From IMG/VR virus record IMGVR_UViG_2695420456_000012: a stretch of DNA of 4,159 bases; one strand, given 5' to 3'. Origin of the DNA: a virus. Lineage: Duplodnaviria; Heunggongvirae; Uroviricota; Caudoviricetes. Below are positions 1 to 4,159 of this stretch, in pieces (the first letter of the stretch is position 1; every line of letters begins with the position of its first letter). The notes under the pieces are model-generated. The model saw nothing but the letters and a program-made list of their open reading frames with translations, had not been told where the DNA came from and ran no database searches. The translations under genes and the position numbers were made by a program.

Positions 1-2115
1 TACAGCGGCATCTGGGACGGCAGCCTGAAACCGGCATACAGCAACAACCCGGCCTGGTGCCTGTGGGACATGCTGACTCACCCGCGCTACGGCATGGGAA
101 AACGTCTGGTGGCGGCGGATGTGGACAAGTGGGCGCTGTATGCCATCGGGCAGTACTGCGACCAGACGGTCCCGGATGGTTTCGGGGGCACAGAGCCGCG
201 GATGACCTTTAATGCGTACCTGTCACAACAGCGTAAGGCGTGGGACGTTCTCAGTGATTTCTGCTCGGCGATGCGCTGTATGCCGGTATGGAACGGGCAG
301 ACGCTGACGTTTGTGCAGGACCGTCCGTCAGATGTGGTGTGGCCCTACACAAACAGTGATGTGGTGGCTGACAATGAAGGTGTGGGATTCCGCTACAGTT
401 TCAGCGCCCTGAAGGACCGTCATACTGCGGTGGAGGTCAGTTACGTCGACCCGCATAACGGCTGGCAGACCTCCACGGAACTGGTGGAAGACCCGGAAGC
501 CATACTGCGCTACGGACGCAACCTGCTGAAGATGGATGCGTTCGGCTGCACCAGTCGCGGTCAGGCCCACCGTGCCGGGCTGTGGGTGATAAAGACCGGA
601 CTGCTGGAAACGCAGACGGTGGATTTCACGCTCGGGTCACAGGGGCTGCGTCACACACCCGGTGACATTATTGAAATCTGTGATAACGACTATGCCGGGA
701 CCATGACCGGCGGACGTGTCCTGTCCATCGATGCCGCCAGCCGCACCCTGACGCTGGACCGTGAGGTGACACTGCCGGAGACCGGTGCCGCCACGGTGAA
801 CCTGATTAACGGCAGCGGTAAGCCGGTGAGTGTGGACATCACCGCACACCCCGCGCCGGACCGGATACAGGTCAGCACCCTGCCTGATGGTGTGGAGACA
901 TACGGTGTATGGGGACTATCCCTGCCGTCACTGCGCCGTCGCCTGTTCCGCTGTGTCTCCGTCCGGGAAAACACGGACGGCACCTTTGCCATCACGGCGG
1001 TGCAGCACGTACCGGAAAAAGAAGCCATCGTGGATAACGGGGCCAGCTTTGAGCCGCAGTCAGGCACCCTGAACAGCGTTATTCCACCGGCAGTGCAGCA
1101 CCTGACGGTGGAGGTGAGCGCGGCTGACGGTCAGTATCTGGCACAGGCGAAATGGGACACGCCGCGGGTGGTGAAGGGTGTGCGCTTCAGTCTGCGCCTG
1201 ACCAGCGGAAGCGGAGAAGACAGCCGTCTGGTGACCACCGCCATCACTGCGGATACAGAGCATCGTTTCAGTGGTCTGCCGCTCGGGGAATACACCCTGA
1301 CAGTCAGGGCGATTAACAGTTATGGCCAGCAGGGCGAACCGGCCACCACCACCTTCCGGATTAACGCGCCAGCAAAACCCGCCACGATTGAGCTGACACC
1401 GGGCTATTTTCAGATAACAGCGGTCCCGCGTCTTGCGGTGTATGACCCGACGGTACAGTTTGAGTTCTGGTTTTCGGAGGCAAAAATCGCAGACACATCT
1501 CAGGTGGAAACCTCTGCCCGTTATCTGGGGACCGGCAGTCAGTGGAGTGTATCCGGCCCGCACATTAAGCCCGGGAAGGATTTCTGGTTTTACGTGCGCA
1601 GCGTCAACCTGGTGGGGAAATCTGCTTTTGTGAAAGCCAGTGGCCGGGCCAGCAATGATGCAGAAGGGTATCTGGGGCTGTTTCGGGAAAAAATAGGAAA
1701 ACTGCATCTGGCTCAGGGGCTGTGGGAGCTGATAGACAACAGCCAGCTTGCGGATGAGATGGCGGAGATGAAGACCACCATCACCGAAACCCGCAATGAA
1801 ATCACACAGACGGTCAGTAAAACGCTGGAAGACCAGAGCGCCACCATTCAGCAGATACAGCGCGTGCAGAAGGACACAAATGATGACCTGGCTGCGCTGT
1901 ACATGCTGAAGGTTCAAAAAACGAAAGACGGCATTCCCTATGTGGCCGGGATTGGTGCAGGGATTGAGGATACTGATGGCCAGCCACTGAGCAACATACT
2001 GCTGCTGGCTGACCGTATCGCGATGATAAATCCGGAGAATCCGGGAAAACACGGACGGCACCTTTGCCATCACGGCGGTGCAGCACGTACCGGAAAAAGA
2101 AGCCATCGTGGATAA
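1..2115 (+). CDS. J: Host specificity protein J (tail tip / central tail fiber), 5'-partial. It reads in frame 1 from the window start through repeat copy 1, then shifts frame at the duplication junction (~2039) and ends after 25 out-of-frame codons at TGA 2113..2115.
   Basis: Frame 1 is open from position 1 ([36 protein letters not shown]...), upstream of the ATG at 70 reported by the ORF track. The translation closely resembles lambda gpJ from about residue 265 onward as I recall it (e.g. [99 protein letters not shown]). The tail ...MINPE|[25 protein letters not shown] is the out-of-frame reading of copy 2. Confidence 0.85.
962..2038 (+). repeat. Direct tandem repeat, copy 1 (1077 bp = 359 codons) internal to J.
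   Basis: Base-by-base comparison with 2040..3116 at offset 1078 shows identity except at 6 positions (1179, 1206, 1215, 1219, 1227, 1311). The ORF track independently shows it: identical 66-aa + ORFs at 1433..1633 and 2511..2711, and near-identical minus-strand ORFs at 1060..2145 and 2138..2995. Confidence 0.95.
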
Positions 2116-3116
2116 CGGGGCCAGCTTTGAGCCGCAGTCAGGCACCCTGAACAGCGTTATTCCACCGGCAGTGCAGCACCTGACGGTGGAGGTGAGCGCG
2201 GCTGACGGTCAGTATCTGGCACAGGCGAAATGGGACACGCCGCGGGTGGTGAAGGGGGTGCGCTTCAGTCTGCGCCTGACCAGTGGAAGCGGTGAAAACA
2301 GCCGCCTGGTGACCACCGCCATCACTGCGGATACAGAGCATCGTTTCAGTGGTCTGCCGCTCGGGGAATACACCCTGACAGTCAGGGCAATTAACAGTTA
2401 TGGCCAGCAGGGCGAACCGGCCACCACCACCTTCCGGATTAACGCGCCAGCAAAACCCGCCACGATTGAGCTGACACCGGGCTATTTTCAGATAACAGCG
2501 GTCCCGCGTCTTGCGGTGTATGACCCGACGGTACAGTTTGAGTTCTGGTTTTCGGAGGCAAAAATCGCAGACACATCTCAGGTGGAAACCTCTGCCCGTT
2601 ATCTGGGGACCGGCAGTCAGTGGAGTGTATCCGGCCCGCACATTAAGCCCGGGAAGGATTTCTGGTTTTACGTGCGCAGCGTCAACCTGGTGGGGAAATC
2701 TGCTTTTGTGAAAGCCAGTGGCCGGGCCAGCAATGATGCAGAAGGGTATCTGGGGCTGTTTCGGGAAAAAATAGGAAAACTGCATCTGGCTCAGGGGCTG
2801 TGGGAGCTGATAGACAACAGCCAGCTTGCGGATGAGATGGCGGAGATGAAGACCACCATCACCGAAACCCGCAATGAAATCACACAGACGGTCAGTAAAA
2901 CGCTGGAAGACCAGAGCGCCACCATTCAGCAGATACAGCGCGTGCAGAAGGACACAAATGATGACCTGGCTGCGCTGTACATGCTGAAGGTTCAAAAAAC
3001 GAAAGACGGCATTCCCTATGTGGCCGGGATTGGTGCAGGGATTGAGGATACTGATGGCCAGCCACTGAGCAACATACTGCTGCTGGCTGACCGTATCGCG
3101 ATGATAAATCCGGAGA
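2040..3116 (+). repeat. Direct tandem repeat, copy 2 (1077 bp). Its 3' end runs seamlessly into the downstream J sequence (GCGGCAACAGC from 3117).
   Basis: Same comparison as copy 1. Sequence flanking the pair is unique: 5' of 962 is ...CTGTGTCTCCG and 3' of 3116 is GCGGCAACAGCACG... A single A at 2039 separates the copies. Confidence 0.95.
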
Positions 3117-3787
3117 GCGGCAACAGCACGCCGTTATTTGTGGCGCAGGGGAATCAGTTGTTCATGAACGATGTGTTCCTGAAGCGGCTGTTTGCGGTGA
3201 GTATCACCTCGTCCGCCAATCCCCCGACGTTTTCCCTGACGCCGGAGGGCAGGCTGACCGCAAGAAATGCTGATATCAGCGGTAACGTGAATGCGAATTC
3301 CGGGACGCTCAACAACGTCACGATTAACGAGAACTGTCGGGTTCTGGGAAAACTGTCCGCGAACCAGATTGAAGGCGATCTCGTTAAAACAGTGGGCAAA
3401 GCTTTCCCCCGGGATTCCCGTGCACCGGAGCGGTGGCCATCAGGGACCATTACCGTCAGGGTTTATGACGATCAGCCGTTTGACCGGCAAATTGTTATTC
3501 CGGCGGTGGCATTCAGCGGCGCTAAACATGAGAGAGAGCATACTGATATTTACTCCTCATGCCGTCTGATAGTGCGGAAAAACGGTGCTGAAATTTATAA
3601 CCGTACCGCGCTGGATAATACGCTGATTTACAGTGGCGTTATTGATATGCCTGCCGGTCACGGTCACATGACGCTGGAGTTTTCGGTGTCAGCATGGCTG
3701 GTAAATAACTGGTATCCCACAGCAAGTATCAGCGATCTGCTGGTTGTGGTGATGAAAAAATCCACAGCAGGTATCAGTATCAGCTGA
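2078..3787 (+). CDS. J: Host specificity protein J, C-terminal portion in frame +2: repeat copy 2 (two fibronectin-III-like domains plus a helical segment) followed by the distal receptor-binding region. Probably not a free-standing gene; it is the continuation of J displaced by the 1078-bp duplication.
   Basis: Frame 2 is open from 2030 (just after TGA 2024..2026 and TAA 2027..2029) to TGA 3785..3787. The first possible start codon is GTG 2078, which has no Shine-Dalgarno sequence at a usable spacing. After the repeat, the translation continues with [25 protein letters not shown]...[24 protein letters not shown]...PFDRQIV...[15 protein letters not shown]...ISIS*, which matches the C-terminal layout of lambda gpJ as I recall it ([48 protein letters not shown]) but with a divergent extreme C-terminus. 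Confidence 0.8.
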
Positions 3788-3805
3788 ATTTTATAACCCA
3801 GAACG

Positions 3806-3832
3806 GGCGTCAGAAATGACGCCTTTTTTATT
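3806..3832 (+). terminator. Rho-independent terminator downstream of J.
   Basis: GGCGTCA (3806..3812) pairs with TGACGCC (3817..3823) as a perfect 7-bp GC-rich stem with a GAAA tetraloop (3813..3816), followed by TTTTTTATT (3824..3832). It lies 19 nt after the J stop codon. Confidence 0.8.
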
Positions 3833-3842
3833 GCAGAAAAGC

Positions 3843-3848
3843 GAGAGG
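3843..3848 (+). promoter_or_regulatory. Shine-Dalgarno sequence for lom.
   Basis: GAGAGG at 3843..3848, 5 nt upstream of ATG 3854. Confidence 0.6.
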
Positions 3849-3853
3849 TAATT

Positions 3854-4159
3854 ATGCGTAAACTTTATGCCGCCATTTTGTCCGCAGCCATTTGTCTGAC
3901 CGTATCCGGTGCGCCTGCATGGGCGTCTGAACATCAGTCCACGCTGAGCGCGGGGTATCTTCATGCCCGGACGAACGCTACCGGTAGCGATAATCTTAAC
4001 GGGATTAACGTGAAATACCGTTATGAATTCACGGACACGCTGGGGCTGGTGACGTCATTCAGCTATGCAGGAGACAGGAATCGCCAGATTACCCGTTACA
4101 GCGATACCCGCTGGCATGAAGATTCCGTGCGTAACCGCTGGTTCAGCGTAATGGCGGGG
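3854..4159 (+). CDS. lom: Lom outer membrane protein (Ail/Lom/PagC-family 8-stranded beta-barrel, lysogenic-conversion protein), 3'-partial. A predicted signal peptide occupies the first ~24 codons.
   Basis: ATG at 3854 with an upstream SD; the frame is open to the window end (102 codons). Translation: [24 protein letters not shown]|[78 protein letters not shown]. It has a basic N-terminus, a hydrophobic core and an AWA-type signal-peptidase site. It is near-identical to lambda Lom as I recall it, and sits immediately downstream of J as in lambda. Confidence 0.9.

Follow-up and report, generated by a model that had tools for sequence, protein, structure and literature searches.

A 1078-bp tandem repeat shifts the reading frame of the predicted tail-tip gene J in an Escherichia coli prophage contig

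The stretch of DNA analysed here (the window, 4,159 bp; IMG/VR record IMGVR_UViG_2695420456_000012, Caudoviricetes) is the complete contig CYDC01000140.1 of a draft Escherichia coli assembly, GCA_001285425.1. It carries a 5′-truncated gene J, predicted to encode the tip attachment protein (central tail fibre) of a lambda-type phage, followed by the 5′ part of lom. Inside J, a segment of 1077 bp (359 codons) stands twice in direct tandem with one base between the copies, and the reading frame of J is lost at the junction (Table 1).

Ungapped self-comparison of the window at an offset of 1078 places the two copies at 962–2038 and 2040–3116, exactly where the initial annotation had put them, with 1071 of 1077 positions identical (99.4%); identity at the same offset is about 25% everywhere outside 962–2038. 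The likeness of the two copies is far above chance, and a repeat search likewise found the first 300 nucleotides (nt) of the unit recurring at a spacing of 1078 (Tandem Repeats Finder, run with a maximum period of 500, missed the repeat). The copies lie head to tail with a single novel junction at 2038–2040, which is the arrangement of a tandem duplication. The base between them, A at 2039, differs from the G at 961 and from the G at 3117; the window is free of any N, and the junction base is a called A.

The repeat period of 1078 equals 3 x 359 + 1, that is 1 mod 3, so the J frame is lost at the junction and meets a stop codon 25 codons on. Translation bears out the frame shift, the stop at 2115 and the resumption of J in frame 2, all of which had been noticed at first reading. 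Frame 1 is open already at window base 1, and its ATG at 70 is not the start of J; frame 2 opens at 2030, offers a first start codon (GTG) at 2078, and carries the remainder of J up to a stop at 3785–3787. A lambda-type J is one uninterrupted frame of about 1130–1160 codons; here the C-terminal domains lie in frame 2. Deletion of either copy in silico yields an uninterrupted J frame that is co-linear with all relatives, and deletion of base 2039 yields a single open frame across both copies to the normal stop. The junction of the window reads GGAGAATCC, and the in-frame version, with base 2039 removed, would read GGAGATCC.

Table 1. Features of the window, their coordinates and their assignment.
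Feature	Coordinates	Strand	Remarks
J frame 1, 5′-truncated	1..2115	+	enters at about lambda gpJ residue 256; copy 1, then 25 out-of-frame codons; TAA 2113–2115
Copy 1	962..2038	+	about lambda gpJ 577–908; about 33 residues, FNIII-1, FNIII-2, alpha-helical shaft, first half of beta-prism
Variant patch, 133 bp	1179..1311 (counterpart 2257–2389)	+	all six differences between the copies inside
Short perfect palindrome CCGGA-GAA-TCCGG	2032..2044	not applicable	made by the junction; TCCGG adjoins both breakpoints
Junction base A	2039	+	allele of L001, L002, L004 and L009 at both homologous positions
Copy 2	2040..3116	+	99.4% identical to copy 1
Frame-2 open reading frame	2078..3787	+	CTX03137.1, 569 aa; copy 2, rest of predicted beta-prism fibre and C-terminal receptor-binding domain
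Intrinsic-terminator-like hairpin with T-run	3805..3824	+	directly after the J stop
lom, 5′ part (Ail/Lom outer-membrane protein)	3854..4159	+	PF06316; annotation of relatives; cut by contig end

The gene is, judged by similarity and domain content, a lambda-type J, which agrees with the initial annotation: the frame-1 product matches the solved lambda gene product J (gpJ; PDB 8iyk_J) over residues 256–907 at E=6e-300, the frame-2 product matches gpJ residues 847–1131 at E=1e-87, and lom stands next. Read across both frames, the Pfam domains come in the expected order (Phage-tail_3, Ig_J, Ig_J_second, Phage_Tail_Tip, Ig_GpJ_C). The hub and the two J-specific immunoglobulin (Ig)/fibronectin type III (FNIII, or FN3) domains are detected at E=1e-37 (PF13550), E=6e-42 (PF24421) and E=1e-38 (PF24489), and the frame-2 open reading frame (ORF) contains the tail-tip fibre prism (PF09327, E=3e-23) and the C-terminal receptor-binding Ig domain (PF12421, E=4e-38).

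In lambda gpJ the hub domains are followed by FNIII-1, FNIII-2, a shaft of alpha-helices, a beta-sheet prism and the receptor-binding domain (PMC11101478). By Pfam the repeat unit contains Ig_J, Ig_J_second and the first half of Phage_Tail_Tip, in keeping with the two FNIII/Ig modules and helical segment first attributed to it. Tail-fibre evolution by module duplication fits the unit less well. The unit starts near lambda residue 577, some 33 residues before the first Ig domain (FNIII-1), and ends at position 64 of the 139 positions of the Phage_Tail_Tip (beta-prism) domain; on these borders it is not a clean block of Ig/FN3 modules. As both breakpoints fall off the domain borders, the event looks like one with random breakpoints and not like modular tail-fibre evolution.

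We searched 5,426 complete E. coli genomes, 50,697 phage records, the GTDB representatives, IMG/VR and the JGI metagenomes. In the best complete-genome and phage matches the 4,159-bp query is covered by about 3,081 bp of the record, the unit being present once in every relative, and the window collapsed to 3,081 bp aligns with these relatives co-linearly. The comparison of J length with lambdoid relatives that the initial annotation had proposed gives the same picture, namely a single coding sequence (CDS) of 1157 aa with the unit once in all. Among 1.84 billion representative proteins, no close homologue (>60% identity) contains the 359-aa unit twice or is longer than 1,246 aa; distant J-like proteins of 1,400–3,500 aa with many Ig/FN3 repeats exist (P0091, P0108 and P0135). 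No protein among 5.8 billion protein clusters spans the junction peptide in either frame, a weak result in that just 9 and 33 short candidates were scored.

Four single-copy relatives (L001, L002, L004 and L009) have an A both at the position homologous to 961 and at that homologous to 3117; the G alleles of the window are natural too, both single-copy boundary contexts (GTCTCCGTCCGGGAAAAC and CCGGAGAGCGGCAAC) being 100% identical in hundreds of genomes. The 31-mer that spans the junction is GATAAATCCGGAGAATCCGGGAAAACACGGA. Because both homologous flanks commonly have the same allele as the spacer, A, this base is probably better read as part of a templated 1078-bp duplication, joined through 1-nt microhomology in an allele of the common type, than as an inserted error; the homology at the junction is only this 1 nt (A), provided that position 961 or the equivalent of 3117 was an A, the common allele, in a parent. 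ATCCGG direct repeats stand near both breakpoints; slippage between them is ruled out by the sequence, as it would yield a 1069-bp period and another junction. The TCCGG beside both breakpoints reads ATCCGG in the A961 allele and is not the crossover point.

The initial annotation had offered a defective prophage, an assembly artefact and an elongated J as alternatives, a sensible list from which the last member largely drops out. An elongated J would require a genuine duplication of exactly 1077 bp (359 codons) together with an error of sequencing or consensus at base 2039; the protein would then measure about 1516 aa and possess two helical shafts and four FNIII domains. Removal of base 2039 does open one frame through to the normal stop, and the number of domains does vary in the wider family, as the long, distant J-like proteins illustrate. 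However, with the extra A being a natural allele at both homologous flanks, a templated origin accounts for it better than an error does, and short-read data, in which substitutions dominate, rarely insert a base in a 2-nt run. Moreover, the right breakpoint cuts Phage_Tail_Tip at 64/139, so that half of a trimeric beta-prism would precede a pre-FNIII segment; the doubled unit is absent from all close homologues, and no in-frame junction peptide was found (33 short candidates, a weak test). From the sequence of its flanks, the frameshift appears intrinsic to the 1078-bp event; correction of the junction base is disfavoured, and we regard an elongated J as very improbable.

A functional split gene is more improbable still. 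Under this explanation, recoding within 2030–2112, or a restart at GTG 2078 or GTG 2108, would produce a hub piece and a separate fibre piece. The frame-1 stop follows GTG 2108 at a distance of 5 nt, and a G_GGA_AAA heptamer stands in the incoming frame at 2043–2049. A −1 slip at this heptamer, however, leads into frame 3, which soon stops, and not into the frame 2 that is needed, which is not the arrangement of a programmed frameshift. The 83-nt rescue window contains no +1 recoding motif and no long A/T run, there is no convincing Shine–Dalgarno sequence ahead of either GTG, the local RNA fold is unremarkable (z=-1.9), and the split arrangement is a singleton without conservation in the databases searched. 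Rescue by frameshifting thus appears unlikely. The heptamer itself, brought into the incoming frame by the duplication, is a perfect −1 slippery site, close to the G_GGA_AAG of the lambda G/GT site; its counterpart in copy 1 (965–971) is read in a non-slippery register.

The copies differ by six substitutions (1179, 1206, 1215, 1219, 1227 and 1311, in copy 1 numbering), all within 133 bp, which for six random sites in 1077 bp has P=1.6e-4. Five of the six are synonymous third-position changes and one is D/N. The copy-1 haplotype recurs at 99.5% identity (one mismatch) in 200 records, and the copy-2 combination has no match above 97.9% in complete genomes, with four of the six copy-2 variants recurring singly in different other J alleles; two variants are private, namely C1227 in copy 2 and G1311 in copy 1. 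Random mutation after duplication is ruled out as the source by the clustering and by the 5:1 synonymous bias. In their pattern the six differences are natural-looking allelic variants, and not errors or random mutations. Since allelic differences cluster in this way, a second J allele appears to have contributed, either through gene conversion or recombination between paralogues, or through collapse of paralogues or a choice of path by the assembler.

Our analysis leads us to lean towards a genuine 1078-bp head-to-tail duplication in the window DNA, which would make J a pseudogene. We propose that an illegitimate join with 1 nt (A) of homology duplicated 1078 bp inside the J gene of a lambdoid prophage. 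Translation would then leave the J frame at the junction and stop 25 codons later. The truncated J would run from the hub domains through FNIII-1, FNIII-2 and the helical shaft to the top of the prism and end short of the lower beta-prism, with no receptor-binding domain; the prophage alone could not make adsorbing particles. For the six clustered differences and the G/A/G pattern at the boundaries we propose another J allele of that genome as the source, through gene conversion or assembler collapse of paralogues. Were the two copies to recombine homologously, J would become intact again, exactly and whichever copy is kept.

Several observations weigh against this reading. The junction occurs in none of the 5,426 complete E. 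coli genomes, where a 161-nt junction query was never covered beyond about half; it was not found in the 50,697 phage records; and exact junction patterns of 37 nt and 23 nt had no match in the GTDB representative genomes, IMG/VR or the JGI metagenomes. The outer flanks are G and the junction is A, a mismatch that needs at least one further event or a choice by the assembler. The copies share a perfectly identical stretch of 727 bp, which probably exceeds short-read inserts, so that the assembler probably could not see the tandem order directly. Complete E. coli genomes contain sequence like that of the window in a median of 2 and as many as 15 places each, and two J paralogues in E. coli strain E2865 share an exact block of 1,676 bp; false duplications come from settings of this kind. 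The contig, from a fragmented draft, begins within J and breaks off within lom, both of them prophage genes; as the window is a short whole contig of this draft, an artefact becomes more possible and the structure has no support outside the contig.

These points give weight to a false duplication made during assembly, which we consider a serious possibility, albeit a less probable one than the genuine event. In this scenario, two or more J paralogues would be identical over 962–2038 except in 1179–1311 and would differ (G versus A) at the flanking site 961 and at the equivalent of 3117; their partial reconstructions would have been set end to end, and a one-base gap between the pieces filled with the alternative allele, J being intact and single-copy in each prophage. 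Side-by-side placement of two variant copies of one region is a documented class of assembly error (Kelley & Salzberg 2010, PMC2864568), and a widely used bacterial pipeline is reported to make 4–10 misassemblies per genome, with a warning of false joins by greedy scaffolders (PMC5320598). The window is consistent with such an error in many respects: it is a whole draft contig with both ends in repeated prophage genes; J is multi-copy, and paralogues of one genome share exact blocks of >1 kb bounded by single-nucleotide polymorphisms (SNPs); the unit is flanked on either side by a position with natural A/G polymorphism, and 962 and 2038 are where blocks of exact match between the window and its relatives begin and end; the spacer measures exactly one base, which is the alternative allele; the copies differ at allelic or paralogous sites only, with natural-looking variants, five of six synonymous and within 133 bp; the copy-2 combination reaches at most 97.9% in any complete genome; and the junction is in no other database searched.

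Other features are harder to reconcile with a false duplication. There is no N at the join. De Bruijn-graph contigs follow k-mers that are present in the reads and do not contain junctions absent from them. GapFiller joins sequences only with an overlap of at least 10 nt, as against 1 nt here, and SSPACE reportedly needs about 15 nt. Taken together, the lack of N, the behaviour of de Bruijn graphs and a 1-nt homology below the GapFiller overlap would make a join invented without reads hard to produce. Nor do we know of a verified series of tools by which a one-base gap would become an A (polishers that call ambiguous bases from pile-ups might conceivably do this), and two contigs overlapping by 1 kb are rarely emitted by de Bruijn assemblers. 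In a genuine duplication, by comparison, copies marked by SNPs may be just what lets a short-read assembler traverse the repeat twice, and single-SNP bubbles popped toward other paralogues would explain the G/A/G pattern.

Loss of J would not be exceptional for an E. coli prophage. E. coli genomes, complete ones included, commonly carry J genes that are frameshifted or fragmented (P0152–P0157, among them several fragments annotated as short 'proteins'), and pseudogenisation of J is therefore an ordinary fate. It is conceivable, at a very long shot, that a real duplication acts as an unstable and reversible off-switch, with collapse by RecA or Red restoring J, perhaps as a mosaic, in some genomes at each induction, or that it serves a split tail tip; if true, a reversible switch would constitute a bet-hedging or host-range-shuffling mechanism. 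The other readings share a small remainder of probability.

Several neighbouring features deserve mention. The gap between J and lom contains, within 3805–3853, a strong terminator-like hairpin (GGGCGTCA-GAAA-TGACGCC) with a T-run, and a Shine–Dalgarno-like GAGAGG stands 7 nt before the lom ATG at 3854. The alpha-helical shaft (1738–1821, and 2816–2899 in copy 2) is about 28 residues longer than that of lambda, query residues 580–607 being unaligned to 8iyk_J. The receptor-binding end (3117–3787) is closer to PDB 9wca/9wcb, 'A8 gpJ 713' (E=1e-110, same C-terminus), than to lambda gpJ (E=1e-87), and from this similarity the receptor of the window's J may differ from the LamB of lambda. An exact look-up identifies the frame-2 ORF as GenBank CTX03137.1, annotated 'host specificity protein', and finds it on no other contig.

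The relatives illustrate the settings in which such J genes reside. In the chromosome of E2865 (NZ_AP018808.1), the J paralogues L004 and L005 are identical over the equivalent of window positions 1–1676 and then diverge, which makes J mosaic and repeat-like within one chromosome. In a paralogous prophage of E2865 (L006, 5346–7076), an IS66-family element (tnpA, tnpB and an ISEc22 transposase) follows J directly, at the usual place of lom. The closest single-copy relative, L001 (E. coli JNE132847, 11241–15082), lies in a prophage whose tail-fibre genes are followed downstream by nleL and espN, two genes for type III effectors; this suggests that the source strain is an E. coli of the enteropathogenic or enterohaemorrhagic (EPEC/EHEC) type.

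The interpretation first placed on this repeat is thus partly supported. Either outcome is ordinary, prophage decay on the one hand and draft-assembly error on the other, and neither is a new route of tail-fibre evolution. If the duplication is real, it adds one more path by which a prophage structural gene decays, unusual only in being exactly reversible by recombination. The database entry CTX03137.1 (569 aa) would be either a pseudogene fragment or an assembly product, and singletons in short draft contigs of multi-copy prophage genes offer no basis for conclusions on the evolution of tail-fibre domains unless they have support at the level of reads.

Comparison with known systems places the window close to well-described J genes. 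Lambda gpJ (PDB 8IYK, 8K35 and 8XCG–8XCK) has the same domain order from hub to C-terminal Ig-like receptor-binding domain, and lom stands next in both; gpJ is 1132 aa long and the single-copy relatives of the window allele are 1157 aa in one CDS, whereas the lambda gene has no 1078-bp repeat and the J gene of the window is interrupted by one. The J genes of Shiga toxin (Stx)-converting and other lambdoid prophages of EHEC/EPEC (gpJ WP_286352568 of NZ_AP028094; Stx1a phage EH182) are still closer, with 97–98% DNA identity over the whole window minus one copy and the same J-lom-stf neighbourhood; the unit is single in all of them and twice in the J of the window.

The false duplications described in draft assemblies (PMC2864568) likewise consist of two near-identical adjacent copies that differ at allelic SNPs, but those cases concern diploid haplotypes and usually have a gap between the copies, whereas here the copies would be prophage paralogues separated by a single called base. 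The J pseudogenes of defective E. coli prophages resemble the window in encoding truncated J products with out-of-frame tails; in one of them, P0154, on a complete 4.98-Mb chromosome, the out-of-frame tail peptide is the same as that of the window product and follows a different upstream frameshift. The lesions in other E. coli J pseudogenes are small insertions or deletions, whereas that in the window is a 1-kb tandem duplication which homologous recombination could remove exactly.

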